From assembly GCA_004764695.1 (NCBI GenBank), contig SMSO01000032.1, forward strand, positions 3,256,483 through 3,320,482: a DNA stretch of 64,000 nucleotides, written 5' to 3'. The position numbers and the translations under genes are program-made. The stretch comes from Schizochytrium sp. TIO01. Its lineage: Eukaryota; Protista; Bigyra: Labyrinthulomycetes. Each line of letters starts with the position of its first letter. Position 1 is the first letter of the stretch. Positions 2,246 through 56,814 of the stretch are shown in pieces. The notes beneath the pieces are model-generated. The model saw nothing but the letters and a program-made list of their open reading frames with translations. It had not been told where the DNA came from and ran no database searches.

Positions 2246-3247
2246 ATGGCAGACATGGAAAGCTCCGGCGATCTCCCCCCGTTGGTGGAGTCAGAGGTGC
2301 CTTTAGCGAAACCAGTAGGTTTGCTTCTTCGTCATGAGGAGGCGGACGACCGGGCTGTCAACGATGAAACGCAACACAGGGACGACAAAGATAACGATGA
2401 TGTGGCCAGGGTCGTCAAGCTTGTGCATCTGCAAGACCCCAAAGCTGGGGTTTTCTCTCAACAAAAGAAACAAGTAAGTCTACCTGGTTGGGAAAGCTGC
2501 TGCTGCATCGTCGCACAATATTAACTCACATTTGAAAACTTTCTCATCATTGACCTCAACCTTGTACAGTGTGACCTTTGGGAGTTTTTTTGGGGGACCT
2601 CACTTCTCACAGCAAGCTTTATCAATGCACTGGACCTTTCCAAGCTAAGTGTTCTTGAAATTGGTGGCGGCTCTGGGCTCTGCAGTCTTACCGCCAGTTT
2701 GAGCGGAGCGGATTCTGTACGCATGACCGATCTCGTGGAGGATGCATTGCGTGTCTGTGCGCAAAGCGCAAAGGCCAACGAACTAGCCAATGTAAGCTTT
2801 GCAAAACTTGATTGGAATGATATGAACTCTGTTCCGGAAGAGGCCTACGACCTTGTGATTGCATCTGACGTCCTCTTTTATCGAGGTACTGTTAGTCCAG
2901 TGGCCCAGGTGTTTGCAAGAGCCCTCCGCCCCGGTGGCATTGGTCTTCTAACGGACCCATGCCGCTGTAATACGGATGACTTTATCTCTAAACTGGACGA
3001 TCTTGGGATTGTTGCAGAGACACATCTTTTTCGTCCAGAGATGCTCGCGCGAGGACGCGACCTTGGGCCAAAGGCTTTTGTAAATGTGAAAAAGGTCAAA
3101 CTTATTGTATTCTCCAAACCTAGCTCTAACGAAAGGTTGCAACAGCTGTCCGATCTAGACGAGCAAATTAAGGCTGCTTTACCTGGATTCACACGACCAG
3201 AAATTGAGGTTGAGATGGAAGCACTTGGGCTTGCAATAAACTCTTAA
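2246..3247 (+). CDS. Class I SAM-dependent protein methyltransferase, family 16 (METTL21/EFM-like); 2 exons 2246-2473 and 2570-3247
   Basis: Joining the exons across a phase-0 intron gives ...SQQKKQ|CDLWEFFWGTSLL...VLEIGGGSGLCSL (motif I)...VRMTD...LDW...YDLVIASDVLFY (DxxY motif typical of MTase family 16). Confidence 0.85.
2474..2569 (+). other. Spliceosomal intron (96 nt)
   Basis: Donor GTAAGT at 2474, acceptor ...CTTGTACAG ending at 2569, branch-like TTGAC shortly upstream. Removal fuses two ORFs in frame and skips a stop. Confidence 0.85.
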
Positions 3248-4424
3248 TACTAAGGTTGCAAACTATGCAATCGGTTTATGATGTGCCTATCCTGCCGAAG
3301 CGATGACTAGCAAGATGTGTTTCTTTGCATCACTTTCCTCATATCAACTTTGTTACGTATATTAAAGATTTGGATGAACCTTTCTTGCAACATCCTAGTT
3401 ATGATTATTACAAGTGACTTTTCTTTCTGAATCTCGAAATGTGTTGTGCCGCCACTCAGCAACAGTTTAAAATCCTGTTGAGACTGGGTCATTACACCTT
3501 TTGTACTCCGAATGAGAACGACTCAGTTCACCATGATACTGTTTCTTCATCATGACTGGATTCTCTTCAAAACCTTCAATCTGCTTACTATATAGCCAGC
3601 GTAAGCTTCCTCCAAGCCCACTCTGATGTGTAGTAATAATATGTGTTTATACCCTAGCAGGAGTGCTGCCTGAAACTTCTAGACATCAGGTAGTTGGGAC
3701 CTAAATACCTTCTACATGTGCCTCCAAAATGCTGATCTTCTTGACAATAACTCGAAGTATAGGGCGTAATAGTTATTGTTATCTGAGTTTCAATGGCTGC
3801 AGTTAAGCGCTTTGGTAGCTACAAAGCAGTAGAGTTAGTTTTGCGGCCCTTCAGAATCAGCCTAAGCTTAAAAGAAGTGCACACTTTCCGGGGTTGAGGT
3901 ACCTTTTTAGACCTGCACGCGCTGGACACTATTACTATTAGTAATACACAAATACAGAAGCCTATCCTTTTTTTAATTTTTTTTTTTTTTTCCCCGAAAC
4001 AAACTCAGTCAGAGTCTCGTCAGTAGCTGCTGTCTGCATTGGCATGTGCTTTCGCTGCATCATAGCGTGCAGGCTTCGAGTGTTTTTGGCATACTCCACA
4101 CTGCTTCGCAGTTGTATTTTCTAGTCTAAAACATTGAAAGAAACTACTAATTTGTTATTAAAAAAATAGAAATACTTTTTTAGAAATAAAAAGGAAAGAT
4201 AACTCAAAAGACAGAATTAGAAGGCACGAGCATCAACAGCCAGGCACCCCCGCTTGATTGATGGAGAACCAAACATCATTCTGTGGATTGGGTCCGAAGC
4301 AATTACCCCCCCAGGGTCGAGAAGCAAAACCTCTTTGATTTCTACAGGAGGTGGGGGCGTGGTCACAGGGCAAGGTGGATCGCTGGTTACACCGTTGCCT
4401 CTAGAGTTGCTCAACGAAGGAGTG

Positions 4425-7400
4425 ATGGTGCAGCTAAAGAAGCTCCTCTGCAGGCCTATGGCCTTGCGTGGAGCAAGTGATGAAAACCCAAGTATTAAGC
4501 TGCCGGAGGGATCTCCATCAACGAGTGAGTCTCTCCAAGATGGTGATTGCAGACGTACCGTGTCGCAAGAGGTAGAGCAGGGCGCTGCCGGTGCTGTTTC
4601 AGGTTCTGCAAGAAATAGCAGAGATTCACAGACGAGTCGAAGATCAACATTTAAGGCAGCCCTACAGAACGTACTCGTACAGGGTGCCGCACAATTGAGT
4701 CGAAAATCAGGCCTAAAGAACACAGCTTCTAAACAGATATCTGGTAATGTCTGCAAGGTCTCACAACCTCTAGATAGTGACTTACTTCAAGAATGGATCG
4801 ACGAAGCCAAAAATGACAAGCTTGAAATGAAAGAAAGAACTACTGCGGTCGCACGACTCTATGCGCTTTTCGAAGAGATTGAAAAGATAGATAAAAACTC
4901 CAGTGTTTCAGAACAACAGAGCTACTTCAACATTGCTCTCGAAAGAGTTGCCCCCCCTTTGTTAGATGATCTCGTTAAAGCGGCTATCCTGGGGAAACTT
5001 CAAGGCCGTCTGGCACAGATTGGCCTAGCAAAGATGCGTACGCTAGGTAGTCTTGACTTGGTGGACTCTATTTGTGGTTGGAATGATGCTACAGAAGTCG
5101 CTGAGTGGTTGACACGAGCAATTGGTTTTGACATGAGCAATTCTGAACTCAGCGAGTTTCCACCTGTGAAACATATGCCATGCACTGTAAACCTTAGTGA
5201 CTGTCCTAAACTATTAAGTTTGGGCTCGTCGCTTCAATTCGTGGACGGAAGTCTGGACCTTAGCGATAACACTGGACTACAAGATCTGGGCAACCTTGAA
5301 AAGGTTGGAGGGGACCTTGAGCTCTACAATTGCATCTCCCTAGAGAGCTTATCTGGGAATCTGATTGTTAGCCGTGACCTAATGTTGGAAGGTTGCGAAA
5401 GGCTACAATCTGTTGGTCCCCAGATAAGCTGCGACGGATATTTTAATGTACTAGAATGCTCTCAGTTGGAATCAGTACATCTTCAAAACATTGGCAAATG
5501 GATGAGCAAGACACCATCTGTTATTACGAACTTACGTATCTATATTACAATAAAAACCCTTCTCGACGAGAATTGCACGGGAGCAGATTTATCTAATGCG
5601 TTTAGCGAATTGAATATTGGACATGAATCTTTGCGAACCGCATTAGAGGATCTGGCTGAGACTCAAATTGGCAGCGCTCTGTTGGACACGAGCAGGTGTG
5701 ACGAGTTTCTTGACTGCCTTACTACAGAGGTTGATGTAACAGAGTCGTTACGAGCTGCTATGCAAAAAGTATACGCTACTGTAAAGCGTGTTCTGGACCA
5801 AAATACTCTCAACACGAATTCTACACTTGATCCAACTTGTGGCTTCAAATCGTTAACACATCTTGTTCTTGAGAGCTGTTCTGATTTGTTAATTTCCAAA
5901 ATGGAAGTGCTACAGGAGTTGAAGGTTCTATGCGTTTCCGGCGTTCTGCAAATAGTCGAATGCCCAGAACTGAGATCTGCTACGATAATAGCCGCCCCGG
6001 CCCCACCCGAGATCGTAGAGCCTCTCTCTTCTGACGAGAATAAGGTGGATGCTAGCCTGGATCTACGAGAGCTTGTGTCGTTAGAAAAAGTAGACATTTC
6101 AGGCACTTGGATGAATGCTGAGATAAGGAAATGTTCTGTTCTTACCAAGCTGGAAAGTGACATCGTTCTCAGAGGAAATTTGGGACTCTCATATTGCCCT
6201 AAGCTCACCTCTCTGAATGGTCTGGAGATAAGAGGAAATTTATCCATGTCGTTTCTAGAGTCTTTGACAAAGTGCAACGTGAAGGGGAAGCTATCGGAGG
6301 TTTCTTTAACCAACTGTTTGAACTTGGTACATTGTGATGTTGAGGAGTGTAAAAACTTCTCGGCATGGGGATGCTCAGCTTTGTCTAAATTCAGCGATTC
6401 AATGTACGTTGAAGAAAAACTAACCATGATTCAGTCCGGAGCCGTTCATTTGATGTTGCCTCAAGCTGAGGCAATTGAAATAAATGATAGTTCAATTGTT
6501 TCTATCGAATGTCCGATGGTTAAAAAGTTGGTTGTCACGTTTTGCCCTGGGCTGAAGTCAGCATGTCTCAGCAACAATGTAAAACCGCGTCTAAAATCAC
6601 AAAATGAAGAAGAAGAAGAAGACATTGATGAGATGCCACACATGGAGAAATTGAAATTCGAAAACTGCTATGAACTCACGCATATTTCTTTCGTTGGAGC
6701 TGAGACGACAACTGTGGATGATTTAGAACTCTCCGAGAATGATAGGCTAGAGGAAATTGAACTTGTCGACACCAACCTAGTTGTGGGGAAGCTCAGTCTC
6801 TCCTCAGTCGCTAATCTAACTCAACTTTCGGAGATGAGAGTCGAAGACCTCCGAATTGTAAGATGTCCTGGTATCGAAACGTTAGCTAGTCTCGAGCAAG
6901 TGGATATACTATATCTCGAAGATTGCTCTCAGCTGGTTGAGCTATGTTCGTTTTCAGGCACATGCGAAATCATCAATTGTCCAGCCCTGAAATCACTTCC
7001 TTCAAATTGCCATGCTGACGAGCTAACAATTTGTCAATGTAGGCTTCTTTCGGAATTGCCAAGTGATCTTTCAGTTGATATCGACCTCTCCATTTCATCT
7101 TGCGATGAGTTGCTCTCGATACCAGAAAATGTCAGGCCTCAAGGAAAGTTAGAAATTGTGAGATGCTCATCTTTACAATCTCTGCCTCGCAGCATTTCTG
7201 CAACTCAGGTTCATTTACGGATGTGTAGCTCTATAAATGATGTCTCGGCACTTGTGGGTGCTGAACTGCAGGTATTATCTATTAATGGGTGCCATGCTCT
7301 CACGTCACTTCCTGACGGAATTCATACTAGTACCTCCTTTCGCATAACGAGCTGCAACGCTGTGGAGCGATTGCCAAATGGCCTTCACTCTGGACAGGTC

Positions 7401-9113
7401 GAAATCTCAAAATGCCCGTTGCTAGCTGGTATTGGTTCTCCTGGACAAGGGCAAATTTCGACAATGATTATCGAAGAGTGCAATCGTTTGGAAAATATTC
7501 CAATGGAGTACTCTGAACATGTTACGAAGCTAGTCATTCGAAAATGCGAGAATTTTCATCAATTACCTTCTGGCTTCATCGCAAATCATATCGTAATAGA
7601 CCATTGTGGAAGTTTTGAGGAACTTTCACCTTTAGGAAAGAATCCGGCATGTCTTGAGATCACCTCATGTTTGAATTTCCTTACACTACCTCAGAGCTTG
7701 CATGTAAACGGACCTCTCTTACTTCATGACTGTGTTCGCCTTGAGACTCTCCCTGAGGACCTCTACGCGACTGTGCTAGATCTTTCGCGTTGCACCAACG
7801 TTCAGCATCTGCCTGATTGTGTGCTTCATTGGAGCGAGAACCTAGAAGAGTCTAGAAATCCCGTAAGGGTCCTGGCTCGTCGGGTCTCTCGTTTATCTCA
7901 ACGAATGTCCCTCACGAGACGGAGCGACCTGGTTACCCCTTCCCCGGGCGAGCCATATTCGGTTATTGTTGGAGAATCTGGTATTCAAGAGAATGATGAT
8001 GAGCTATCAAGAATTTCAGAGTATGCCACACCGCTCTTTCGCATTGATCTCCGCGCAAGTAACATATCTGCATCGGAACGACGTTTCAGTCTGGCCAATG
8101 CTACATCATCAACCATGGAGCTTTTCCTTTTCGGCCCAACAAGAAGAAGCACCCTGGACTCAGAAGATGATGATGAATACCAAGAGGATTTCCAAGAAAT
8201 CGATATGCCACGCGATCTGGAAGGAGCTATTACATATTGGAAATCACGAATTCTTGAGGAGGTTCCGGATGCTGGACAGTTCATTGTAGCCGATGTTGTG
8301 AAAGCAGTTCCAGAAACTTATACGTTTGGTGTCATCGAGTTCCTCTCAGTAATACATTTAGCCAAGGAACTTAAAAATGAGACACTTCGTCCTGGTCTTC
8401 TCACACGTCTTGCAGAGGTTTTAGAGCTCTTGGCCACTACTGAAGAAAGTGATGTTAGGGAAGCAATTTGCATTCGTATGTCAGATAGCTCTGATGCATG
8501 TGGCGATAAGCCCATATGGGCTTTGAATCAAATGTATCAGCATGTTCTGATTGTCCAGGCTCGGGGCGATCGAGGAAAGCTCTTTGCGCTAGGAAAACGT
8601 TTAATGCGACTTGACGTCGTGCATCACTACATCCGTAAATTTATTGAGGAAGAGCTTCCAGATGGCGACGAAGTCTCTATTTATCTTCGCTTCGAAATTG
8701 CTTTACGAGACACTTTGGATTTGCCAGTGTCTGCAAAATCTATGCTGTTCCCAGACATCGTTGTTATACCAGATGACAATATCAGGGAAGCAGAAGACGC
8801 CGCTCTCGCAATTACTGAGACAGAATACGAACATTGGCTAGAGAGTTGGGAGGAGTGGCAACGCCAGATTCGTTCCGAGCAAGCTGCGACGCTTGACTTA
8901 AAATCACTTTCACGAAATAGTCTCAAGCGTGTTTCCCTATCATGGCAAACACTAATTGGGACTCAGATTGAAGACCCTGTACGTCTTTTGCCTAGTCGTG
9001 ATATAGTGAGTCTACAAGAGTTACTTCGCCACTGGGTGGAGACGGGCAATGATTATTTTAGCATTCCACGAACCTTCGAGTATCTGGAAAACAATCTTAC
9101 TCGTTGCATCTGA
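4425..9113 (+). CDS. LRR-NEL E3 ubiquitin ligase (IpaH/SspH/SlrP-type NEL domain) with C-terminal U-box-like segment
   Basis: Uninterrupted ORF (open from 4254; in-frame ATGs at 4425 and 4458). Many LxIxxCxxLxxLP repeats at ~5184-5490 and ~5850-7830. NEL signature EFLSVI...VREAICIRMSDSSDACGDKPIWALNQM...GKRLMRLDVV...DEVSIYLRFEIALRDTLDLPVSAKSMLF...WEEW at ~8210-8880, with the Cys codon at 8499-8501. Confidence 0.85.
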   Translation: MVQLKKLLCRPMALRGASDENPSIKLPEGSPSTSESLQDGDCRRTVSQEVEQGAAGAVSGSARNSRDSQTSRRSTFKAALQNVLVQGAAQLSRKSGLKNTASKQISGNVCKVSQPLDSDLLQEWIDEAKNDKLEMKERTTAVARLYALFEEIEKIDKNSSVSEQQSYFNIALERVAPPLLDDLVKAAILGKLQGRLAQIGLAKMRTLGSLDLVDSICGWNDATEVAEWLTRAIGFDMSNSELSEFPPVKHMPCTVNLSDCPKLLSLGSSLQFVDGSLDLSDNTGLQDLGNLEKVGGDLELYNCISLESLSGNLIVSRDLMLEGCERLQSVGPQISCDGYFNVLECSQLESVHLQNIGKWMSKTPSVITNLRIYITIKTLLDENCTGADLSNAFSELNIGHESLRTALEDLAETQIGSALLDTSRCDEFLDCLTTEVDVTESLRAAMQKVYATVKRVLDQNTLNTNSTLDPTCGFKSLTHLVLESCSDLLISKMEVLQELKVLCVSGVLQIVECPELRSATIIAAPAPPEIVEPLSSDENKVDASLDLRELVSLEKVDISGTWMNAEIRKCSVLTKLESDIVLRGNLGLSYCPKLTSLNGLEIRGNLSMSFLESLTKCNVKGKLSEVSLTNCLNLVHCDVEECKNFSAWGCSALSKFSDSMYVEEKLTMIQSGAVHLMLPQAEAIEINDSSIVSIECPMVKKLVVTFCPGLKSACLSNNVKPRLKSQNEEEEEDIDEMPHMEKLKFENCYELTHISFVGAETTTVDDLELSENDRLEEIELVDTNLVVGKLSLSSVANLTQLSEMRVEDLRIVRCPGIETLASLEQVDILYLEDCSQLVELCSFSGTCEIINCPALKSLPSNCHADELTICQCRLLSELPSDLSVDIDLSISSCDELLSIPENVRPQGKLEIVRCSSLQSLPRSISATQVHLRMCSSINDVSALVGAELQVLSINGCHALTSLPDGIHTSTSFRITSCNAVERLPNGLHSGQVEISKCPLLAGIGSPGQGQISTMIIEECNRLENIPMEYSEHVTKLVIRKCENFHQLPSGFIANHIVIDHCGSFEELSPLGKNPACLEITSCLNFLTLPQSLHVNGPLLLHDCVRLETLPEDLYATVLDLSRCTNVQHLPDCVLHWSENLEESRNPVRVLARRVSRLSQRMSLTRRSDLVTPSPGEPYSVIVGESGIQENDDELSRISEYATPLFRIDLRASNISASERRFSLANATSSTMELFLFGPTRRSTLDSEDDDEYQEDFQEIDMPRDLEGAITYWKSRILEEVPDAGQFIVADVVKAVPETYTFGVIEFLSVIHLAKELKNETLRPGLLTRLAEVLELLATTEESDVREAICIRMSDSSDACGDKPIWALNQMYQHVLIVQARGDRGKLFALGKRLMRLDVVHHYIRKFIEEELPDGDEVSIYLRFEIALRDTLDLPVSAKSMLFPDIVVIPDDNIREAEDAALAITETEYEHWLESWEEWQRQIRSEQAATLDLKSLSRNSLKRVSLSWQTLIGTQIEDPVRLLPSRDIVSLQELLRHWVETGNDYFSIPRTFEYLENNLTRCI

Positions 9114-12100
9114 ATGAAAAATGAAAAATATGGGGGATTAAATTAGGGATGAGTTTTGTATAACAATAATTCTCGTATTCGTGAGAGGCCTATTTGCTGA
9201 GGACTTTTCAGCACATCAAGTAGGGATTTCTCATTCCTTCGAATAGCTGTTTTCTGCCGACTTGAATATAATTGATACCTTCATAGTCCGGTAGTTACCA
9301 TAGAAAGTTTGTCTCAATAAACACATTTTACACTGTTATTTCCCGCATAGAGTAGCTGTTGCTATGGAAGAAAAAAGTGCTGGACAGTCTCGATAAAATT
9401 TGCTCTCTGTATTAACCGACGACTCTGCTTTGCCTCTCCTGTGGTACTCCTCAAACTCCAAACTCATCGTGAATATTATAGTGCATAAAGTAGACTGGTT
9501 TGAAATTATGTTGCGATGTTGATTCAATTTCTCCATTTCATTTTGAATGTTTCACTGTGAGAGCGTGAGCTTCTACCTGGAGTTTGCTCATGCTCTCTGT
9601 AGCCAAATGCCAAGCAGTTGTTTCTGGTACTGTCGGATGGAAAGTTGCGTTGCATTCATCAATTAGTACAAAACCATATTTACCTTATCGTGAGTTATTC
9701 ACTTGAGCTCTGCCACCCGCCCAGAATATCTACTCAGTCAATCAAAGTTGCTACAGAGGTTATCTTTGGAAGACAGTGAGTAGAGAAGGAGCTTGCGATC
9801 GTGAAACAGTCTTTCGTGATAACCAATTGCATGTCTTCTAAATTTTAAACAACATTTCAGGTTCGCCAGCTTATGCAGTGCGACATCGTTGTAAGTGTAT
9901 CGATAGATATTCAAACGATAGATAGAAAATTATGACCATTCCTCCAAATCATCTCTGGAAGCTCCGAGTTGAGTTCATACGGAGATTTACAATTTAGCAA
10001 AAAAGCAATTACGAAAAGAAACCCCTTCTATTGAAACGTTCCGTTGTACCGCTACAGACGTTTCATGTATTTGAGGGACCCTTAAGTTACGGGGCTGGCT
10101 TTTCCCCTTGTCTCTCTCTAGAGAGCTGTGGGGATGGGAATCCGTGGCCGTGAATGGTGGTTGTTTTCAGAAAACGGCGCACGACTTCAGGGCGCAGGAA
10201 AAGCCGTCGCACAGAAAGAAAGCCCGCAAAATACGCACAGACCAGGAGAGGGAATCTCTGGCAAGGAATGCAAGCTTCACTTGTTGGAATAGTTTGGAGA
10301 AGCTTGATCATGGTCATTGAGAGTCTCGTGGACCTTGAAAGGTGCTAATCATCGCTAGCAGCGTTGCTGCTTTAAAAAAACAATGAATCTGTAAAATCGT
10401 GAAAGCCGCATCAAATGAATTGAGGGAAACTGAAGACGAAGGAACTAGAAGCGGTGCTGCAACCGATACTTTCTATTCTATGAGCAATTCAAGACTCTGC
10501 GCGTCACGTTTCCGCAAGCGGCCTGAGACCTGGGCCAGAGGAAGCGCGAGCTGAGCTATCTAAGCCGTTTGGACATGCGAGTCTGCCCATCAATCCTACA
10601 TCTATAGTCTGTAGTGTGGCATGAAGACTGCGACGAAGAGCAAAGAGTGTTTTAAGTTTGCAATAAAAGGTAGGTCCTTTTGATTAAGATTCAACTTTGA
10701 AACACTGAAGCATGAAAGTGGCAGGGACACAGGTTTCTCGCAAGCTTCAACTGCACAAGTGATAATCTTTTCATTCTTTGTCCGTTCAGACGAACGCAAA
10801 CACCTCATATTTTGCATTTGCATCGACAGCTTCTGAAATGCAAATTAGTATTTAAAAAAAAAATAATACGAAGCTTGTGGACCTGAGCTTTGGAGATCAT
10901 TCAAATGCAGATCGGGAGCCCTTGTAAACGGAGGGCAGCTTTCGTTCTAGTAGACATACCTGGGGATGTTTGTGCGACCTCGAAGCATGCAGATTGTACA
11001 TGACAATAGGCTGTGTCTACTTGTGTGCTTTGTGCAGGAGGAAGAATGGAGAAGGAGTTCTAGGTACTTCATTACATACAAATGGATTTATTTATTTACA
11101 ACAAGGAGAAAGAAAAAAAAAGAAAAAAAAAGAGAAGCTCCCTGGACGGGTGGTCTGTGTGGTTCTCTGAAGTCGCGATGACGGCAGCGCTATGAGGGCC
11201 TTTTGCGCAAGGGCAGGTGAGGAACAGTCCTAGCGGAAACCTTTCACTTATGCTACTACAGATAGAATCGGCACATCGTGCTCTCTCCTAGTTCCATCAC
11301 CGACAGTCGGTAAGTTTGCCACAGGTTCGGAATCTAGCGAAAGCAAGGTATTTATTTATTTGACGGTCCACTAAAAAAAATAATAGCATGTGATCGCATT
11401 GCACAATCGACTCTTCACATCTTCATGTTGTAGTATGCTCTCTTACAACCTTTGTGTAGACTCTCTCCGTTTCGTTTTGAACACCGACCAGTGAGACTGA
11501 GCGACTCTGCGACGCTGCGGCATCAAACGGACCAACAAGCTCTCTGCAACGCCCGCCCTCCTCGCCTCAACAATGGCTGGTTGGTTGTCTATGGTCGGTC
11601 AGCTCGTCGGTGCCGAAGAAAACACAGCCTCGCCATAGGACATAAAACGGAGTAGCACTCCTTTTTAAAATTTTAAAATTAAATAAAAGTTGATGAAAAC
11701 AAAGGGAAAAGGAAACTTTGTTGTGCCTCCCTGAAGGAAACACAACGTCTGCAGACAAATCTGAACGCCGCAGACTTGGAGACCAACTTTTTCTTTCCTC
11801 TGTTTTGCCTATTGTTAATTGAGATGAAGCTTCTCTTCGTTTCTTTTCACTTTTGAGGTTCGGTGACGCAATGAGCCAGCGAGTTTTAGTGTAAAAATAA
11901 ATGAAAGGTTTTTAGCTGAGGTTACGAAACATAAATAATATAGAAATTGCTCATTTTTTTAAAATTTTAAATTAGACAAATTGCACGTAATTAGTAGTTA
12001 GCTAGCTACTCTTTCGAGCGAATTAGCCATTACAGCACGACTTCCAGTACCGCCTGGACGAAGTCTAATCTGAATTTACAAGACGAAAACTAAGGCTATC

Positions 12101-47010: not shown

Positions 47011-47471
47011 GCGTCCAAACAACTGTTCTACTGATCTATTCCTACCAATTTCTCGCCTTCAAATGTGGATTTTATTGTAAAAGAAGAATGTTATCCGCAC
47101 ACCGAGCGATCACTGCATACTTTTCCTGCAAAACACATCCCACTCAACAGGGGAGAGATACCTGTAAACCTGCCAATGAAAAACTGGCTGATATTGTTCT
47201 TGATAGCGATTAAAATTAAGTAAAAAATCAGCCTTCTATATCTACGCTTTTTCTTGGAGCAACATACGTTCCTATTTCGACCAAGTCGGAAGCACACGTT
47301 TATGTATTAACTTTGTACACAAACAATGTCATCACCATTTTGGTCTACCCACTTGCAAGAACGTTTGTACTTTAATATTAAAATACATATGTCTATAATT
47401 CCCTATTCTAATGACCAAAATTGAAGGATTTGCAAATCCTCACGAACCTCTGTAGCAATTTGTTTGTAACC

Positions 47472-49136
47472 ATGCTGACATCCGTGCGATCGCGGGCACC
47501 CTTGGCTCCATTCGGGGCTCGACTCCTTTCGGGTTCCTGGTCCTCAACGCCTCCGGCTGTGTGCGTGTTCAGCAGCCTGGAGCTAGCTGTTCGCGATGAT
47601 GGAAACGCGGCTTCATCAACCTCAGCGGTGAACAAGTTTGGCGAAGTTGCAGCGGAGTTTTGTTTCTCTCACGGCTTCCCCGCGCGGTCTGCCGAGGCCC
47701 TCAGTAGGTCTGGCCAAGTTACCTGCGGCTCTGCTGAGGCGCTGTGGGCTCTCGCCAGTCTTTTTGAGCGCAAACAGTGGCGCGAGTCAAAAATTGCGAT
47801 GCACGAACCAATGATGGCTTTGCAGAATCTAGACGACGAGATCGTTCTGAAAAGATGTGAGAGCTCGCAGGTTTTAGTAGACGCAGTGCAAACTATTTAT
47901 CACGATCAAAACATGAATGCTGCTGCGGACATCTTTGAGCAGGGCCTGCTCATGAACCCTTATAACATTGTCGCGCTCAGGAGTCTCCAGGAAATCTACT
48001 TGAGACAAGGCCAACCTCAAGAAGCGCTGGCATGTGTTGAACGTACGCTTTCGGAATGGATTCCAACCATGCCAAGCTACCCCGCGTTGCAAGGACTTCA
48101 TGCAAACGCGCTCTTTGAGTGCGGTTACATGGGAGAGGGAGAACGAATTGCAGGACAGGCACTTGCACAGGAACCTCTGCATGGAGTTGCGGCCGTGGCC
48201 ACAGGCTATGGATTTCTCAAGTCTTTTAGGTTTCGCGAATGTGTGCGTCTTGCACGTGAGCTTGACTACATCTATGAAGAAAACGTTCAGGCAAGCTCGG
48301 CAGTCAGCGGTGAGTTCTACTATATGCAGGGCCTCGCGTCGCTGGAGTGTGCCAAGCTGCGGCCTGCCATTCAACATTGCGATACTATATTGACCATGGA
48401 CAATGTCTGGCCTGAGAGCTGGCCTCTTGCCGCCATGCTCTTATGGCAGTCTACTCTTCTTGGCGCTACTGACGAATGGATTCGCAGCCTTGACAAAAGC
48501 AACCCTACGTTTGACTTGCGTAACTTTTTCAGCTCATCAAGCGGACCGCGTGAAGCCTCGCTCAGTATTTCTGATCGCTTTCGAACTCTTGCAAGCCACC
48601 CAATTGTGACACAGTCCTCTCCTGAAACAGCATCCTCTGACCCGTTCCTGCATCTACTCAAGGTCATCATCGCTCTTGGAGCTCGCGACCCAACTCGAGC
48701 CATTCAACTGACCCATATGTGCGAGGACCCCGTTTTGCTCACCATTTGTGAAGGTTTCACTGCCCGCGAAGCTGGAAACTTTGAGGAAGCTGTGGGTCAC
48801 TTTCGTCGTACTCGCAAGTCTTGGTCACGCATCACTGGCCGTGAGACAGACACAAATGTCATTGCGGCAACTTACGCCGAATGTGTTCTTCGTGCTGCTG
48901 GACTCGATGTAGTATCTGAGAATCCTTTGGAACAGATCGTTCAGCCAGAGCCTTCGATGGCACTTCGTGAGGCACGCGCATTTACTAGTCAGCTTACCAT
49001 GCGTAACCCTAATAGTCCTCTCGCATGGAGCATGTTTTCTCGGGCTGCGTCGGCCTTGGGATCTGACGAGACAGCTAGGCAAGCTCGCGTTCGTGCTCAG
49101 GAACTGGGTTACCGCCAGGGAGGCTCTTTTCACTAA
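47472..49136 (+). CDS. TPR/alpha-solenoid protein, TTC38-like, with possible mitochondrial presequence
   Basis: First ATG at 47472. Helical repeats such as FEQGLLMNPYNIVAL...YLRQGQ and GLHANALFECGYMGEGERIAGQALAQEP resemble TTC38. N-terminus is Arg/Ser/Leu-rich and lacks acidic residues. Confidence 0.6.
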   Translation: MLTSVRSRAPLAPFGARLLSGSWSSTPPAVCVFSSLELAVRDDGNAASSTSAVNKFGEVAAEFCFSHGFPARSAEALSRSGQVTCGSAEALWALASLFERKQWRESKIAMHEPMMALQNLDDEIVLKRCESSQVLVDAVQTIYHDQNMNAAADIFEQGLLMNPYNIVALRSLQEIYLRQGQPQEALACVERTLSEWIPTMPSYPALQGLHANALFECGYMGEGERIAGQALAQEPLHGVAAVATGYGFLKSFRFRECVRLARELDYIYEENVQASSAVSGEFYYMQGLASLECAKLRPAIQHCDTILTMDNVWPESWPLAAMLLWQSTLLGATDEWIRSLDKSNPTFDLRNFFSSSSGPREASLSISDRFRTLASHPIVTQSSPETASSDPFLHLLKVIIALGARDPTRAIQLTHMCEDPVLLTICEGFTAREAGNFEEAVGHFRRTRKSWSRITGRETDTNVIAATYAECVLRAAGLDVVSENPLEQIVQPEPSMALREARAFTSQLTMRNPNSPLAWSMFSRAASALGSDETARQARVRAQELGYRQGGSFH

Positions 49137-49445
49137 GGATTTAAATACCTATACTGTCCTGGTGCATAACCGCATACTGCATATCTACGACATGGAGAAT
49201 GCAATCATAAGTTGAGGACAGTGGATGTCTCATCCTTACTTGCGCTATCGCCAAGAGCTGTTCCTTGTTTGTCATCACATCTTCAATTAGATTATGATTT
49301 AATTTTATAGATACTCAAAAAAATTAAAGATACAAAAGCAAATTTCTTAATTTACAATGATTTTAAGTTTTAGGACAGTCCTTCTTTTTCGTGGTGATCA
49401 GCTGTATGCTTGAAGTTGCGCCTTGGTAAACATGTTACACTATGT

Positions 49446-51506
49446 TTAGTATGGCAACGAAGTTTTGGTTTTGTAAGGTGGTGCTTGAGATACTGCTTGA
49501 GCATAAATACTTGCGCCCGCGGGAGATAAACCAAGCTCGGGTGGCAATGCATCTATTCCTCCAGCAACTCGAACCTGCCGAAGATGAGTCTGCGAACGAA
49601 CATCAGTCAGACGTTGGTCGAGCTCAGCGATGTCTTTCCAAAGGGCCAGCTCATGTTGATCAATTTGCTCAAAAGACGGGGTGATAGTTTGAGGTTTTCT
49701 GGTTGCATTTCTAGGTACTCCTTTTGGCGGAATATTACGATCAGCGGAATTCGCGATCCCATTATGAACAGTTGTAGTTGTAGTTGTAGTTCTACAACCC
49801 AGGATTCCTTGTTGAGATCTCTCCTGACTTGTGGAGGATGTTGGACCCCAAATATCTTCTTCCTCTAGCCTCATGTGGTCAACCGGAGTAACAATGCCGC
49901 GAAGCACAACTGGACGCACAGCTGCCTGTGCTGCCCCATGTAGAGAAATAGCTTCTTTGTTCCGTTGATTCTGCTGCTGCTGGGACAAATTTTGGGGCTC
50001 ATAGCGATTATCGTCAGCCAAATAGGATGCAGAGGGTGGAAGAAACTGCTCAGGAGGTTGTTCTGTGCGCATACGGGCTGTTGTTGTAGCTTCAGTTTGA
50101 TTGTTATTCACGCCATAGTCAAATTCAAAGTCGGCAATATTATCGTGATCTGGTGAAGCAAAATCATTCCGAATATTTTGTACATAATTTTCACTCTCAC
50201 CCCGACCGCCAACTGTTAGAGCAGTCTTGATGTGATTTTGAGATCTGTAATTCTGACTGTTTTGATTACTCTCCAAATCCGCTCTAGGCGCAACCAGTTT
50301 GCGAAACCTATTCTTATTAGCGCCTGTCCGTGCATTAGGTGACGTGGCTATTTGATGCCCAAGAGTACTCTGTACCTGAAAAGCGGGACGGTGTGTTCGA
50401 CTCGAAGGAGAACCAATAAATCTTGGATGGCCCTTTGAAGGGGACCCTCGAGTCTGTTGTAGTTGATTCTCCGCTCGAAGCTGTCTCCATGCTGCCATAG
50501 AAACAGCAGAATTATCGACATATGTATGTGTTTGTATTGCTGGAAGCGCAGGGGTCTTAGGAGAAGTAATTGGCTTACGTGTCCGAGTTGGACTTGTGGC
50601 TGGAGTTCGTTGAGAACGTTTTGGCGAAAACTGTGTTCGTGTTGTACTTGGAGTTTGCGCAGAGGTACTCCCTGTGCTACCTTCACGTGTTTTTGGAGTG
50701 CGAAATTTAGGTATGAGGGAAGGCTTGTTGGATTTTTTCTTTGCACTAACTGTTTTGGGAGCCTTCGGTTGGTCTTTTGATGTTAATGCAAGAGCTGGTA
50801 GGGTTGAGTGAGGATCCCTAACACCCCCTTCTGTTGTTCTTGGAGCCACCACTGGCATGTAAATTTTGCCCGTCTGGAGAAACTCTTGCAAACCTGCTGC
50901 AGCTCTTCGAACTTGCGGGTTTGCATCTTGAAGTATATCTCTGATGAGTTGGTCAACGTTGCGCACCCCGCGCAACTCAGGATTGCTCACCAAGCAGTCT
51001 TGCACCACAAAAAGTGCTGTTTCTCGCATGAGTGGATTTGCGTGATGTAAAAATCGCTCTAGCTGCATAAGAACCTCCTTTGAAGAACATTTAGAGCAAA
51101 ATGATTCCAGTGCAGTCCGGGCATGTTGCCGAATAAACGCGCTTGTGTTGTCGCTTGCCCTCTTCATAAGTGCTGGGATGAGAAGACCTGTCAAAGGAAC
51201 GTTCAGATCAGGACCAAGTCTAACGAACAGCTCTGACAGTGTCTGCGCTGCCCTTTTTGAAAGGGCTGACCGCAGTGATCCCACACAACGTACTGCCCAT
51301 CCTAGTAGGGTTTTGTAGAGCCCTGCATCGAGTGCAAGAATTTGTGGCTCAAAAATAGCCAATCTCTGTAGTTGTTGCAAGCCCGTACTTTGCTGTTCCC
51401 AGTCATCCGTGTTCCGCAAAAACCCCACACATGACCGCGCTAATCTCAATAACGATTCTTCATCAGCAGCCTCTCCCGTAAAGGGTTGCAGTTCCGACTC
51501 ATCCAT
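49446..51506 (-). CDS. TOG/CLASP-N domain microtubule-associated protein (TOGARAM/FAM179-like) with long disordered tail
   Basis: DDWEQQSTGLQQLQRL, VGSLRSALSKRA, TSAFIRQHARTAL, HANPLMR and DANPQVRRAA are TOG HEAT-repeat loop motifs. First ATG at 51506. Basic Ser/Pro/Thr-rich tail contains SLIP. Confidence 0.8.
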   Translation of the reverse strand: MDESELQPFTGEAADEESLLRLARSCVGFLRNTDDWEQQSTGLQQLQRLAIFEPQILALDAGLYKTLLGWAVRCVGSLRSALSKRAAQTLSELFVRLGPDLNVPLTGLLIPALMKRASDNTSAFIRQHARTALESFCSKCSSKEVLMQLERFLHHANPLMRETALFVVQDCLVSNPELRGVRNVDQLIRDILQDANPQVRRAAAGLQEFLQTGKIYMPVVAPRTTEGGVRDPHSTLPALALTSKDQPKAPKTVSAKKKSNKPSLIPKFRTPKTREGSTGSTSAQTPSTTRTQFSPKRSQRTPATSPTRTRKPITSPKTPALPAIQTHTYVDNSAVSMAAWRQLRAENQLQQTRGSPSKGHPRFIGSPSSRTHRPAFQVQSTLGHQIATSPNARTGANKNRFRKLVAPRADLESNQNSQNYRSQNHIKTALTVGGRGESENYVQNIRNDFASPDHDNIADFEFDYGVNNNQTEATTTARMRTEQPPEQFLPPSASYLADDNRYEPQNLSQQQQNQRNKEAISLHGAAQAAVRPVVLRGIVTPVDHMRLEEEDIWGPTSSTSQERSQQGILGCRTTTTTTTVHNGIANSADRNIPPKGVPRNATRKPQTITPSFEQIDQHELALWKDIAELDQRLTDVRSQTHLRQVRVAGGIDALPPELGLSPAGASIYAQAVSQAPPYKTKTSLPY

Positions 51507-52274
51507 CGAGGTCTCCCCAAGACTGGACGAGTGCAATCACGGGTCTTCGTTTAAAGTACTGACGCCAGCTGTTCGCCCCATGCAGAAGCCAACGTGCTTT
51601 TGATTAGCTTCTTCTTTGCGTCAATCAGCTTGGCATTGTCAGAGTCCGCCCGCAAAAGCGCGAGAGCTTCTGGTTTGGTGGAATGCAATAACTCCATATG
51701 TACGTTGAGAACATCCTTATTTCTCTGTTTGTTTTTTCTGAATAAAAATTTACAAATAAAATATAAGAATAATAAGAAATGCCAAGGTCACTTGAAATAA
51801 TTTTTAATCTCTTTCTTTTTTAAATTGCGCAGAATCTGATACAGAATACGCACTTGAGCTTCCTTCCTGTATAGTCCATATTCTTATTCTGGCCATTTAT
51901 GTAAATAGATGCGAAGTAAGAACCTGAAGCCCCTTTCTACACAATGCATCAGCACAACAGCACAAAATAACAGCCGTAAATCAAATCCATCCCAGAATCC
52001 CAATTTGAAGAATACCGAAGTGCTTGAAAAAAGGATAAAAAGTTAATAAATAATGGAACTATGGCTACATTACCTAATAGGTAGAGAAAAAGAACATGAT
52101 AAGAACGTCGATCAAGAAAGAGAACGAATTCGTGGTGGAGGTCTTTCTTAAATCAAACCATCAATTCACTTGTTGGAATCCGCTCAAGACGCGGTGAAGT
52201 CGTTGCAGACCCCACATCAGCTCGCAGTAGATCCTCTCTCCTGATAACCAGGTCTCCAAAAGTTTTTTACAACC

Positions 52275-53627
52275 ATGGTTTGGGGGCAGCAGAGACGCGG
52301 TGTGGATGATCTTGTGGCCAAGCTCCGGGCCAACGAGACTGGTCCTGCTCTCCTGGTCATGAGTACTCGCTCTGTAGACGATGCCGGGCTCAAGTCCCTT
52401 GCCGAGGCCCTCGCAGATAACAATTCTTTGCAAGAACTTCTGTGCTCGGGCCACAGCGTCTCCGAAGACGCAGCTCGCAGCATTGGAGCTGCTTTGCGTA
52501 AGAACCGTACGCTTAAGCGACTCTCTGTGGGATGCCAGAAATTTGGCGATTCCGAGCTTCTCGCAATGCTCGAGTCATGGGATAACTCCACCCTCGAAGC
52601 GATTGATCTCGAGCTTAAGAGTTTGTCTCCTGCGGGTATGGCTGCTCTTGGAACCGTTCTTGGGTCTTCCTCCCATGGTCTTCAAGATATTCGTGTTGGG
52701 CGCAACTCTCTTGGCGACGACGGTATTCGCGAACTCGCATCTGGAATTCGTGATGGCCCTGTGTTCTTGAAGAACCTAGAGCTCAACTCGAGTGGAGTTG
52801 GTGTTGAAGGCTGCAAAGCTCTCGGCGAGGCGCTCAGGAAGTCCTCAGCAAAGGAGGGTGCTCTGAGACTTGTTCTCAGTGACAACCCGGCGGTAGGAGA
52901 TTTGGGCGTCATTGCGCTTGTTGGTAGCCAGGACGACGTCGAAGATCTTGCTGAAGAGCTTTCAGGCATTCTTCCGAGCGTTGAGGAGCTTCACATGGAT
53001 GGCTGCGGTGTTGGAGCGGCTGGATTTGCATCTATTTGCACATCGACAAAGGACCAGACCTCAAGATTTCACGCCATGAAAACTCTTGCTCTTGGACGCA
53101 ACGAGATTGATAGCATCGATAATGAGGCTGCTCTTGCATGTGTTCAACAGCTTGAGGATGTTGACCTCCGGTCCAACAAGATTGGTCTTGATGGATTCCG
53201 CACATTTGCCAGCGCACTGAAGGCCGCGAGTTCCCCACGCTTGCAGACTCTGAACTTAACGAGCATTGGAATTACAATGGAGCCTGTTGGAAATGATGAT
53301 TTTAAGACCGCCGTTGAAGATGCTCTTGCCGGTAAGACCCTCAAGGAGCTGCGGCTTATGGGTAACGCATTGGGTGACGAGGGCGTGGCCATTATCTTGG
53401 AGGCGCTCCGCCATGACGATACTTTAGAGACTCTCGGCCTGGGTGGCGTGAACCTTACTCGGGCTGGTGCTGAGGCCCTTGCAGAACCTCTCAAGGATAA
53501 CAAGGGCCTTCGCACTCTTGAACTCGGTGGAAACGATCTCGGTGACGGTAACACCCTTGTTGAGATCTTGCAAGCAGCTAAGCCTAATCTGATTGTTGCT
53601 CTTGATGGTCAAAAGCAAAATGCATAA
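52275..53627 (+). CDS. Ribonuclease-inhibitor-type LRR protein (NLRC3-LRR-like, no NACHT)
   Basis: Repeats of LxxLxLxxNxLGDxG type (LQDIRVGRNSLGDDG, LKELRLMGNALGDEG, LRTLELGGNDLGD). Confidence 0.85.
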   Translation: MVWGQQRRGVDDLVAKLRANETGPALLVMSTRSVDDAGLKSLAEALADNNSLQELLCSGHSVSEDAARSIGAALRKNRTLKRLSVGCQKFGDSELLAMLESWDNSTLEAIDLELKSLSPAGMAALGTVLGSSSHGLQDIRVGRNSLGDDGIRELASGIRDGPVFLKNLELNSSGVGVEGCKALGEALRKSSAKEGALRLVLSDNPAVGDLGVIALVGSQDDVEDLAEELSGILPSVEELHMDGCGVGAAGFASICTSTKDQTSRFHAMKTLALGRNEIDSIDNEAALACVQQLEDVDLRSNKIGLDGFRTFASALKAASSPRLQTLNLTSIGITMEPVGNDDFKTAVEDALAGKTLKELRLMGNALGDEGVAIILEALRHDDTLETLGLGGVNLTRAGAEALAEPLKDNKGLRTLELGGNDLGDGNTLVEILQAAKPNLIVALDGQKQNA

Positions 53628-54489
53628 GGAGTTGAGACGATGCTGATCTTCAACGTTCTCACTATCAGCCATCTTTTATTCAGGAAGAATATTGTCTCCA
53701 TTGACTATTTCTGGTTCAAAGTAGTCTTTTCGTGACTTTTTCTTGCACATCGTCGTAATCAATCAACGCGCTCTCCCGTTCCTTTACTAAGAAACGCGCT
53801 CACCAGCTCTATATACATTTCTCACCAAAGGGGCTTTGTTTCTGCGATATGAAATATCATGCTTATACCTTCTCACTGCTCCGTTTCATACTTTTACTAT
53901 TTTCCTAGAGAGGTGTCCCGCCCCCTCCTACATTGTGTTATTAATGGGTATGTAACCAACGCTGAACTGTGGTAAATGCTCTGATATCGTCAAGTATAAC
54001 TCGTTTAAAAACTGCTTCTACTTCTTTTACTTTAACAGAACATCTCAAATATTATTTTCGACTTTTGAACTGTTATATTTATTGAATCCTTAAGTTGCAC
54101 TGCATATTTATGCTTCCTTACGTTTTGTGTTTAATAGGAAAAAAGCAAAAACCAGAAACAGCTGATTGCAGTGCTGCGATACTTCCCTAGATTTTTACAA
54201 TTCTCTTTCCTGAAAGCTTGCACACCTTTCCAGACAAGGACAAATTAGCGATACAAATTACGTTCTACTGGGTTCGAACATTCTTCGTTTCCGATACTTC
54301 ATCTGCACAATTTATTCATTATCTACACATCGTATCATATGGAACTGGCCCCAATATCTGATGTGGTCGAAGCTACGGGCACTATCGAGATACTGAACTT
54401 GCCGAATTCACCCAAGTTTTTGCCACTGCTTGCTTGTGCAAACCATGGCAGCCGAAATTCAGTAATTCAACTAGGAAGGGAGGAAATTT

Positions 54490-56814
54490 TTACTGCTGGG
54501 AGGAAAGAACCGAGTGTTTGAGACGTTCAATCTCATCGCGCTTAATTGCTGCATCGCGCTCAGCGCGCACCTCTTGCTCGTGCATGCGTTGTTGCTCCTG
54601 AACAGCACGCTTCTCTGCATCCTTTTTCTCCTTTTCAGGATCACGCGCTTCCATGATAATCTCACCACCGGCCTTGACACCAAAATCCACAATAGCCATC
54701 CCATCTTCATCGAGCGCAACAGGGTGACCAAAGTCTTTGCCAGTCTCACGGTAGAAAAGCTGTTGCAAGTCCACATCAACCTGAAATAGACGCTGGCATA
54801 GGAGCTTGAGCTCTTTGACAGTCATCGATAACGGCAAGCGCTTGTTTACAGGAGGGGCAGTACAGGTTCGTGGATCAAAGCTGCTAATCTTGATCTTGGC
54901 ACTGTTGGATGCAAGTGAGCCATCAGCCTCTTGGGCAGCCTTTGCTCGACGTGCAGCTTCGGTGGGGTCACCATGTTCAGCCACAAGTTCTTCATAGCGG
55001 GGGTGTTCCTTCAGCTTTGCAGCCTTTTCAGTTTCAGATAGCGAGGTCAAAGATACTGCAACACGCTTGAGGTAGAGCCGCTCAGCATCCGAACGCTCAC
55101 GAGTAGAGACCTCAGAGCCGTTGAGACGAATAAGACCCTTGACACGAGCGATTGTGTTTTGGCGAGCAGCTCCCGCATTACCTGCAGAGGTAATGATGGG
55201 AGAACCCTGAAGGCGGACCTCCTTGATAGATGGAAACTCGTTCAAGGTGTCAATACTAGCCCAGTCATTGACACGCGTGCGGCACAGAAGAACCGTCTCG
55301 AGTTTTGAGAACGGTTGAGATCCTCCCATTGTTCCATTGCCTTGGAACAAACGAGCTGCCGTATAGCGTGCACGCTCACGTTTCTCGACCATCGGGATAA
55401 CCATACCGTTGCTCATGACAATGTCGAGTTCCTGGACAAATCGTGGGCCTTTAGGAGCACAGTTCTCGCAATCTTCATCCTTGCGTTCAGCATCTCCACC
55501 ATCATTAGAGGCCGGCGAGGCCTCGCCCTCGGTCTGTGAGCTACAGCACGAGGTCTCCACATTGACATCGTTAGCCTGCTGAGCAGGACTTTCACTATCA
55601 GGACCACTAGACATTTCTTTGAAGTTCTCAGCGGCCTCGAGTCGGGCCTGTTGCATTTCATTTTCCTTCGCAGGAGAGCACGGGGATTTAGAGGCGCCTT
55701 TGCCAATCGCGGCAGCTTCAGCTTGGCTGGTGATGACGTTAATTTGAGGGGGGGCGTCAAAAAAGATTGTCTCAATAGGGTTGTCACTTGCATTGATAGT
55801 CTGCAGAGAAGGTAAACGTGCAAGACGCCAGACCTCTGACCACGTGGTGAGTTTGTTTCTTGATATGTCAATCTTGCGAAGGTTTGCAAAGCCCTTGGCG
55901 AAGGACTCTGGGGTGAAACCCTTTCTGTCAACCTCCTTGATCTGCTCCTGAGCCCATTCTGCATAAGATCCTTTTTTGTGTGCGACGTCTTTAGACTTGA
56001 GGCTACCGATAGGATCAAGTGAATCTAGATCGTTGTCGCCCAGAACGAGCTCTTCGAGCATTGGGAGGAGACCTTCCTCATCGAGACGTTGGACTTGAGA
56101 AAAGGTTGTTCCGGTGCGATTGAGAACCAAGACACGCAGAGAGTGGAAGGGGACCTTCAGCGATGCTGGCAGAGATTCGAGTGGGTTAATAGGGAGTCCG
56201 GCCTTCAGGTTGTTGCGAGCGAGAGAAAGGTGCTCGAGTTCCTCGAGCTGCATTGCGATGTTACCCACAGTGCTCCAGGACTCGATCAAGTTATCAGATA
56301 AATCGAGCTCCTTGATCAGCGGGCAGTGCTCTTTGATCCAGCCTTGCTCGCCTGCAGAAACTACGACGCACGATGCAAGAGAAACCTCACGGAGTTTGTG
56401 GATCTTTTGTTTGCCACGAATCATGTCCATGCCAACAGCCTCAATTTCAACGATGTCGCCGTTGCGACGACGGGGTCCCCCCTCGCCCTCAATTGACGAT
56501 CCACCAACCTCAATGTCATGATCTGGCTCGTAACGAGTCATAAGAGCATCTTGAAATGGCACGCCTACACGAAGAAACTGAGGTTTGACAAAGGAGCCTT
56601 GGCCATCCTTACATTGAAAGTAGCGAGTTTCCTCACCTGTCGCTTTGTCTTTCACGGATCCATCGTGTTTGCCACGTCCGGGTGCATCCCACGTGACACC
56701 AATCCAGACGGTCTCCTTCTTCTTCGCAGTAGCCACAGGACCAATGTATTCCACAATTCCACGAAACCCCTCTTCGTCCACCACAACGTCGCCAACCTTG
56801 AAGCTATCTGCCAT
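54490..56814 (-). CDS. TBCE: Tubulin-specific chaperone E (CAP-Gly + LRR + ubiquitin-like domain)
   Basis: CAP-Gly GIVEYIGPV...WIGVTWDAPGRGKHDGSV...GSFVK; IEAVGMD; LDLSDNLIESW; LNGSEVSTRERSDAERLYLK; HPRYEELVAEHG; UBL KRLPLSMTVKELKLLCQRLF. First ATG at 56814. Confidence 0.92.
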   Translation of the reverse strand: MADSFKVGDVVVDEEGFRGIVEYIGPVATAKKKETVWIGVTWDAPGRGKHDGSVKDKATGEETRYFQCKDGQGSFVKPQFLRVGVPFQDALMTRYEPDHDIEVGGSSIEGEGGPRRRNGDIVEIEAVGMDMIRGKQKIHKLREVSLASCVVVSAGEQGWIKEHCPLIKELDLSDNLIESWSTVGNIAMQLEELEHLSLARNNLKAGLPINPLESLPASLKVPFHSLRVLVLNRTGTTFSQVQRLDEEGLLPMLEELVLGDNDLDSLDPIGSLKSKDVAHKKGSYAEWAQEQIKEVDRKGFTPESFAKGFANLRKIDISRNKLTTWSEVWRLARLPSLQTINASDNPIETIFFDAPPQINVITSQAEAAAIGKGASKSPCSPAKENEMQQARLEAAENFKEMSSGPDSESPAQQANDVNVETSCCSSQTEGEASPASNDGGDAERKDEDCENCAPKGPRFVQELDIVMSNGMVIPMVEKRERARYTAARLFQGNGTMGGSQPFSKLETVLLCRTRVNDWASIDTLNEFPSIKEVRLQGSPIITSAGNAGAARQNTIARVKGLIRLNGSEVSTRERSDAERLYLKRVAVSLTSLSETEKAAKLKEHPRYEELVAEHGDPTEAARRAKAAQEADGSLASNSAKIKISSFDPRTCTAPPVNKRLPLSMTVKELKLLCQRLFQVDVDLQQLFYRETGKDFGHPVALDEDGMAIVDFGVKAGGEIIMEARDPEKEKKDAEKRAVQEQQRMHEQEVRAERDAAIKRDEIERLKHSVLSSQQ

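Follow-up and report, generated by a model that had tools for sequence, protein, structure and literature searches.

A Gene for an LRR-NEL Protein in Schizochytrium sp. TIO01 with a Predicted Degenerate U-Box at the Site of the Bacterial E2-Binding Thumb

Introduction

To our knowledge, NEL domains are generally described as having no eukaryotic counterparts. U-boxes are eukaryotic in origin, and in classical U-box ligases ubiquitin is passed directly from the E2 to the substrate. RING/Cys hybrid E3s such as MYCBP2 form a further class, while the combination of a long LRR with integrated domains is known from plant NLRs. According to section 3.3 of PMC9320238, NEL ligases take ubiquitin from E2~Ub onto a cysteine as a thioester and transfer it to a lysine of the substrate, the LRR providing both substrate recognition and autoinhibition. 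The same source names the nucleophile of IpaH9.8 and its two acidic residues, and describes SspH2 as acylated. As given in PMC12506513, the core of SspH1 extends up to residue 622 and is followed by a helical E2~Ub-binding domain (E2-UbBD, the thumb) at residues 623–697, and the step in which E2~Ub reaches the NEL cysteine is not yet captured structurally. RING1 of the RBR ligases is described as lacking the linchpin in PMC5462532, and PMC7145615 touches on NEL-like domains in NLR genes of green algae only where it comments on an LRR-type ODAL domain.

In a literature search that lay mostly outside the subscription journals, we found no account of NEL-U-box fusions or of a NEL family in thraustochytrids, and no NEL terms occurred in four supplements of PMC12221091. 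Here, we present the analysis of an LRR-NEL gene from Schizochytrium sp. TIO01 (assembly GCA_004764695.1, contig SMSO01000032.1). It lies in a stretch of 64,000 nucleotides, hereafter called the window.

Results

Domain Organisation and Catalytic Core

One NEL domain in total was found in the window. The protein that carries it consists of an N-terminal extension, a helical region, an LRR array with an insert, the NEL core and a degenerate U-box, in that order:

4425..9113, + strand, NEL gene: intronless, uninterrupted ORF of 1562 aa
4425..4460, + strand, N-terminal amphipathic Leu-Leu-Cys9-Arg-Pro motif, a possible S-acylation membrane anchor
4776..5150, + strand, helical region ahead of the LRR, with helices in a low-confidence model
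5172..5519, + strand, first LRR block: five repeats, pLDDT 58–85 over aa ~250–350
5547..5858, + strand, LRR insert: ~100 aa, helical, absent from the Hondaea orthologue
5862..7829, + strand, second LRR block: Cys-containing repeats of 21–22 aa, a type shared with bacterial NEL-U-box proteins
8217..8888, + strand, NEL catalytic core: Cys1359 (8499–8501), Asp1361 (8505–8507), Asp1415 (8667–8669)
8940..9110, + strand, degenerate U-box, replacing the helical E2~Ub-binding thumb of IpaH/SspH

The start codon at 4425 is backed by the matching N-terminus of the orthologue P0002 from the thraustochytrid Hondaea fermentalgiana.

The initial annotation, made from the letters of the DNA, had read the C-terminal region as a NEL domain, and the profile, fold and catalytic residues all bear this out. 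The Pfam NEL profile PF14496 matched aa 1305–1488 with an E value of 1e-21 and 77.8 bits, above the curated cut-off of 24. Among PDB sequences, the last 307 aa matched IpaH (E up to 5e-13), followed by SlrP, SspH2 and SspH1. The AF2 model of the C-terminal part, based on a 60-sequence alignment, showed a helical NEL fold with a pLDDT of 94; the top structures were SspH2 and IpaH3 in Foldseek and SspH1 in VIA (Z 13.2, rmsd 5.7 over 233 residues). Cys1359, which is encoded at the nucleotides where the annotation had placed the catalytic cysteine, aligns together with Asp1361 and Asp1415 with the nucleophile and the two acidic residues of IpaH9.8. The CxD residue Asp1361 corresponds to Asp339 and Asp1415 to Asp397 (the two are 58 residues apart in IpaH9.8). 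In the alignment of homologues, where the labels protist-type and bacterial-type were set for most rows by clade and motif and not by organism name, the CxD motif was intact in 94/94 protist-type rows with letters at those columns, and the second catalytic position was acidic in 99/99. The protein is very probably an active ubiquitin ligase. The motif WEEW, which had been taken for the terminus, is found at aa 1475–1478 and is followed by 84 residues that include the predicted U-box fold.

The very large LRR array was also recognised correctly, but its repeats are degenerate units of 21–22 aa and are broken by the helical insert. A regular expression gave 29 LRR matches, mostly with a spacing of 21–22 aa; a single match lies within the U-box, and another is out of register. 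Profile support was weak, with LRR_EndoS of Pfam at 3.5e-5, below the cut-off, and XopL of NCBIfam at 7e-4 over the second block. No NB-ARC or NACHT nucleotide-binding domain was detected in the Pfam scan of the protein.

The N-terminal structure model had a pLDDT of 50. By eye, region 4776..5150 looks like the N-cap found in bacterial LRR-NEL proteins together with a SAM-like segment; the N-cap and SAM profiles gave no match to the protein, and therefore both remain likenesses seen by eye. The motif around Cys9 could serve as an S-acylation membrane anchor. A loose Leu-Leu-Cys-basic pattern was present in 8/56 family N-termini including that of the window protein, and one of the eight looks spurious.

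The Protist Family and the LRR Insert

The homologue search, which was exhaustive, returned 485 representatives at E values up to 0.001, of which 73 were at up to 1e-30; the best 150 of the 485 were listed. The closest protein among the matches listed belongs to H. fermentalgiana, with 60% identity in the NEL region, and thus points to a thraustochytrid as the likely host. At least nine of the matches are named Hondaea proteins, paralogues of the kind that the initial annotation had proposed to look for in related genomes; their contigs range from 58 kb to 1.1 Mb in length. Their sequences are public and carry the automatic label ‘NEL domain-containing protein’. In a metagenome contig (L025), another homologue is flanked by ALG6 and Spo11. 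The window gene is thus a member of a large protist family and not a one-off. A Durusdinium-labelled record was the sole other named eukaryote group among the homologues listed.

All 40 homologues that were scanned carried the NEL domain, in combination with ARM in four, SPRY in five and SAM in two. Identity between the window protein and its Hondaea orthologue was 48–65% in the core and 19–50% in the LRR.

The insert (aa ~375–478) interrupts the LRR and is missing from the Hondaea orthologue. Four RNA-like sequencing runs share one alternative haplotype, and strain differences were counted over aa 1–1195 from the first 40 of 70 table rows (to nt 8009); its figures match those counted contig by contig for two X18 contigs. 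Seven non-synonymous and one synonymous differences fell in the insert, compared with seven and eight in the rest of the counted region. This corresponds to a pN of 3.1% in the insert and 0.30% outside it, where, with a pS of 1.09%, purifying selection is indicated. The non-synonymous differences in the insert, whose boundaries were fixed after the positions of the differences were known, showed enrichment (P 8e-5), clustering (P 0.004) and, less markedly, an excess over neutrality (P 0.04). Profile and structure-atlas searches, including IMG/VR and ESM Atlas, assigned the insert to no family. A MAFFT alignment hinted at a truncated second NEL domain, which was rejected (1.3 bits compared with up to 7.0 for shuffled sequences; hhalign probability 1%). 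The variability gives a weak hint of an integrated decoy, for which the insert is a candidate; it is also a candidate for a loop under relaxed constraint.

After a single acquisition, the catalytic unit was probably recombined with LRR, ARM, SPRY and SAM recognition domains. The weakest step of the scheme is the use to which the products would be put. The most likely use, suggested tentatively, is surveillance of foreign or tampered proteins in a defence role; the intracellular immune receptor proposed in the initial annotation is plausible. Alternatively, the family could be one of housekeeping or developmental ligases for the turnover of the cell’s own proteins, expanded in the manner of F-box proteins and without any defence role. 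The very long variable LRR, the domain shuffling and the lineage-specific insert with its excess of non-synonymous differences look like features of immune receptors, which argues against such a function; the retention of the orthologue in Hondaea, the purifying selection outside the insert, the coverage of the gene by contigs of four RNA-like runs and the ARM/importin-like and SPRY partners, frequent in ordinary eukaryotic regulators, are in its favour. We regard it as possible, though somewhat doubtful.

The C-Terminal U-Box

The last ~57 residues adopt a predicted U-box fold at the site where IpaH/SspH proteins have the helical E2-binding thumb. The sequence match between the window protein and SspH1 ends just ahead of the start of the E2-UbBD of SspH1, and Pseudomonas NELs and one further homologue (P0144) retain a helical tail at this site. 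Structural matches to Prp19, UBE4B, Ufd2 and AvrPtoB were obtained at residues 248–307 of the model, with modest scores (Z 4.4–7.0, Foldseek E above 0.3). For Prp19, Foldseek gave a probability of 1.00 and a TM(target) of 0.69, but an E value of 0.33, and VIA gave Z 5.1 with an rmsd of 2.1 over 54 residues, at positions 251–307 of the model; the VIA Z scores of UBE4B and AvrPtoB were 4.6 and 7.0, respectively. A profile of eight tail sequences matched Prp19 at E 3.4e-5 and UBE4B at 0.02.

Pfam returned no family for the window tail at E up to 10, U-box PF04564 included, and one bacterial relative scored 15.5 bits against PF04564, below the cut-off of 21.4. An HMM built from bacterial-type tails alone, however, scored 21.8 bits on the window tail, compared with a maximum of 8.9 in 1140 shuffles. 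With tails under 55 aa excluded, the same HMM exceeded 10 bits in 94/98 protist-type tails and in 0/19 others. The loop-2 Pro was found in 2/95 protist-type tails compared with 100/108 bacterial-type tails, and Arg or Lys at the linchpin position in 6/95 compared with 55/108; both are absent from the window protein. The loop-1 Cys, present in 97% of bacterial-type tails, is lost in the protist-type ones. The degeneracy of the U-box extends to positions of E2 contact.

With the linchpin Arg lost, the domain would fit a module that does no more than present E2~Ub to a cysteine, like RING1 of the RBR ligases. We infer that the U-box is a likely dock for E2~Ub. It would bind the cell’s own E2~ubiquitin, from which ubiquitin would move onto Cys1359 as a thioester. 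Its onward transfer, aided by Asp1361 and Asp1415, would be to a lysine of the LRR-bound protein. As in IpaH/SspH, the LRR would keep the enzyme restrained as long as no target is bound. A structural or dimerising relic, with E2~Ub bound elsewhere on the NEL domain, would likewise be expected to lack the Cys of loop 1, the Pro of loop 2 and the linchpin, and the closest solved U-box, that of Prp19, was deposited as a dimer. Such a relic is nevertheless unlikely, since the U-box occupies the E2-binding thumb site, no other E2 site is evident, and the helix Trp (93%), Gly (97%) and Asp (90%) as well as a hydrophobic residue of loop 1 are conserved in 98 protist-type tails.

Bacterial Relatives and Direction of Transfer

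The next-best proteins share with the window protein the repeat type, the C-cap and the NEL core, and have a more canonical U-box. Their named bacterial carriers are Rhabdochlamydiaceae, Endozoicomonas and a Gammaproteobacteria MAG. The injectisome secretin YscC scored over the cut-off in 5/5 carrier genomes tested and in 0/14 controls. A profile of bacterial NEL-U-box proteins matched 8/301 Pseudomonadales genomes, six of them over the NEL part. The window query at 1e-6 found no match in 400 class-level and 401 phylum-level genomes, and matched 5/5 known carriers. A pattern scan of GTDB recovered solely thumb-type NELs of Pseudomonas (24 loci). ESM Atlas gave no useful match. As regards a viral intermediate, BFVD gave no match at E 0.001 or better, and IMG/VR yielded no relative, whether searched with one sequence, with the aligned family or with the insert, in weak scans that need short exact patterns.

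Trees were built from the NEL core alone, on subsets of 220 cores. In the 51-row tree (LG), in which the bootstrap was not fully settled, the protist-type sequences formed a clade with support of 100/99, and the protist-type and bacterial U-box forms were set apart from the thumb-type NELs with 95/87. In the 34-row mixture-model tree, the corresponding values were 99 and 67. Monophyly of the bacterial NEL-U-box proteins was not rejected in the AU test (p 0.43 and 0.62), so the trees fit a protist clade nested in the bacteria as well as one sister to them. The comparison with bacterial NELs, a check suggested in the initial annotation, therefore gave the clade but neither its position, nested or sister, nor the donor or the direction of transfer.

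We favour transfer from a bacterium to a protist, given that NELs occur widely among bacteria, that their U-box is the less derived of the two and that the eukaryotes encountered among the homologues cover a narrow range. We consider a bacterial origin of the protist NEL-U-box gene highly probable. The idea of a horizontally acquired and domesticated NEL ligase thus holds as regards its likely bacterial source; its nearest kin are not of the IpaH/SspH/NopM type but belong to a NEL-U-box class of bacteria with type III secretion systems (T3SS). This class, apparently undescribed, comprises one branch in bacteria and another, expanded one in protists. The reading that we find fairly probable as a whole is that of a protist nuclear gene for a cytosolic LRR-NEL-U-box/Cys hybrid ligase, derived from an effector that was likely acquired from a T3SS bacterium; the ligase would mark selected proteins within the protist cell itself.

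A fusion born in the protist lineage and then taken up by bacteria would agree with the eukaryotic origin of U-boxes and with the unrejected monophyly of the bacterial proteins. It is improbable in view of the more canonical U-box of the bacterial proteins, which span at least two phyla, the long derived stem of the protist clade and the lack of other named eukaryotes, save the Durusdinium-labelled record, among the homologues listed.

The initial annotation had also considered an effector against host or prey cells. Delivery into host, prey or competitor cells was weighed because the window protein likely descends from effectors and because parasites are known among the labyrinthulomycetes. 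A hydropathy heuristic, however, found signal-peptide-like N-termini in 0/56 Met-starting members of more than 650 aa, and for this reason a secreted effector is disfavoured. Moreover, some N-termini bear an acylation-like motif instead, and a protein of 1562 aa would depend on cytosolic E1 and E2. Together, these observations make delivery very improbable.

Genomic Setting

The nearest upstream gene shows the eukaryotic nature of the locus:

2246..3247, + strand, lysine-methyltransferase-like neighbour: Pfam Methyltransf_16 at 8e-13, spliceosomal intron 2474–2569 (GT..AG)

Its end is 1178 bp upstream of the NEL gene, in line with the distance of about 1.2 kb that had been noted between the intronless gene and an intron-bearing one. 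The intron was spliced out in 4/4 RNA-like runs, whose RNA status was judged from the spliced joint itself, as no run with the locus is recorded as RNA. A single X15 contig spans from 2194 through the splice to 9883 and covers the whole NEL gene; it links the gene to its spliced neighbour in an independent assembly. An X16 contig covers 4165–10442, and the NEL gene is jointless in both single contigs. The gene is likely transcribed, as judged from the spliced contig, and the runs may include some DNA. GC3 was 0.41 in the NEL gene and 0.43–0.45 in the two nearest genes. The other long genes of the window are likewise single ORFs, and the neighbours are eukaryotic, so that the proposed eukaryotic chromosomal setting is confirmed. 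An assembly chimera or bacterial contamination, which an intronless gene with a domain known from bacteria might suggest, has a negligible probability given the spliced X15 contig, the matching GC3, the single ORFs elsewhere in the window, the Hondaea paralogues on long contigs and the homologue beside Spo11 and ALG6, and the 20 runs from 11 studies (one a possible DNA source) that contain half or more of the words of positions 2400–9400, a span of 7 kb.

Discussion

A conserved and expanded eukaryotic NEL family contradicts the rule that NEL domains have no eukaryotic counterparts. The predicted U-box in place of the thumb is an apparently undescribed architecture, and proteins built in this way would join the few RING-like/Cys hybrid ligases. 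This protist design is also a natural test of the route by which E2~Ub reaches the NEL cysteine. Persistent mirusviruses are carried by these protists, as stated in PMC12606086, and the NEL-U-box family offers candidate immune genes in such hosts. The most far-reaching version of this idea, in which labyrinthulomycetes turned a captured T3SS effector into a family of single-chain immune sensor-ligases, an undescribed U-box/Cys hybrid class of E3, whose shuffled LRR, ARM, SPRY and SAM domains and fast-evolving decoy would detect viral or bacterial proteins for ubiquitination by the NEL domain, is rather unlikely to hold in full.

Comparison with Known Systems

The window protein has in common with IpaH, SspH1, SspH2, SlrP and NopM an LRR followed by a helical NEL core with a CxD nucleophile and a second catalytic Asp. 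Structural identity to IpaH/SspH-type structures was 18–22% (Z 10–13). The protein is, however, encoded by a eukaryote without a T3SS, has a U-box in place of the E2-UbBD thumb, and possesses a much longer, Cys-containing LRR. Its scores against the NCBIfam equivalogs were all far below the cut-offs (43.8 compared with 550 bits for IpaH_Shig; 45.7 compared with 1113 and 18.9 compared with 1243 for the other two). Although it carries a NEL domain, the protein falls outside the IpaH/SspH family.

The bacterial LRR-NEL-U-box proteins, annotated merely as ‘NEL-type E3 ubiquitin ligase domain-containing protein’, are the best non-protist matches and share the repeat type, C-cap, NEL core and U-box at ~30% identity. 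In contrast to the window protein, they retain the Cys of loop 1 and the Pro of loop 2. The linchpin Arg is often kept as well, with a linchpin in about half of the bacterial-type tails. Their active-site loop is typically CxDR and not CxDKP, and no ARM, SPRY or SAM versions were found among the 31 scanned.

The fold of the last ~57 residues is shared with the U-box E3s Prp19, UBE4B/Ufd2, plant PUB12 and AvrPtoB; the window U-box can be aligned with UBE4B in the strand past loop 1 and in the central helix. The difference lies in the degenerate loops of the window U-box and in its fusion to a catalytic Cys domain. With RING/Cys hybrids of the RBR type, e.g., HHARI, the protein shares the predicted arrangement of a linchpin-less RING-like E2 dock that feeds a catalytic Cys. 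The catalytic domain of RBR ligases is RING2, unrelated to NEL, and the likeness is one of analogy, not homology. The resemblance to plant NLRs with integrated domains is likewise an analogy, based on the long LRR, the shuffled recognition domains and the variable insert; unlike these receptors, the window protein has no nucleotide-binding domain, and its predicted output is ubiquitination.

Variable insert in the LRR region

The LRR array of the NEL gene is interrupted by one additional element:

5547-5858: helical insert in the LRR of the NEL gene.

This insert is missing in the orthologue from Hondaea, and a search for a known family to which it might belong returned no match. The comparison with another haplotype revealed seven non-synonymous differences and one synonymous difference within it, with a pN of 3.1% versus 0.30% elsewhere.

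Neighbouring genes

The following genes were also identified in the window:

544-1740: questin-oxidase-like gene (Pfam, 1e-30).
18926-47010, + strand: five tandem SWEET/MtN3-like sugar-transporter ORFs, at 18926, 24457, 30985, 37078 and 45754.
47415-56886: genes for a TPR, a CLASP-N/HEAT, an RNI-type LRR and a CAP-Gly/LRR protein.

The four genes of the last region, of which the CAP-Gly/LRR protein resembles tubulin cofactor E, are ordinary eukaryotic genes. The SWEET/MtN3-like ORFs, the first of which (18926) was the one compared with Pfam, carry long low-complexity tails. The questin oxidase family is known mostly from fungi and bacteria, and the gene at 544-1740 is possibly another transferred gene near the NEL gene.

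Distribution of the NEL-U-box family

Six NEL-U-box proteins from NCBI records (P0009, P0007, P0011, P0029, P0082 and P0086), located on contigs of 6-28 kb, fall inside the thraustochytrid-type clade. The record of P0009 is named Durusdinium trenchii, a dinoflagellate label. These six represent either thraustochytrid contamination or a second host lineage. A further homologue, P0041 (3458 aa), bears a dozen or more SAM-like repeats N-terminal to NEL-U-box. One locus came from a metagenome contig:

L025, 151-8236: protist-type NEL-U-box gene between ALG6 and Spo11 genes.

This member, flanked by these two genes, suggests that the family extends to further uncultured eukaryotes.

No description of the LRR-NEL-U-box effector architecture of bacteria was found in the literature. 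The bacterial proteins are as follows:

L027-L032; P0088-P0156 and P0179-P0220: bacterial LRR-NEL-U-box proteins.

Their hosts are Rhabdochlamydiaceae, Endozoicomonas and other T3SS-bearing Pseudomonadales, with up to several copies per genome.
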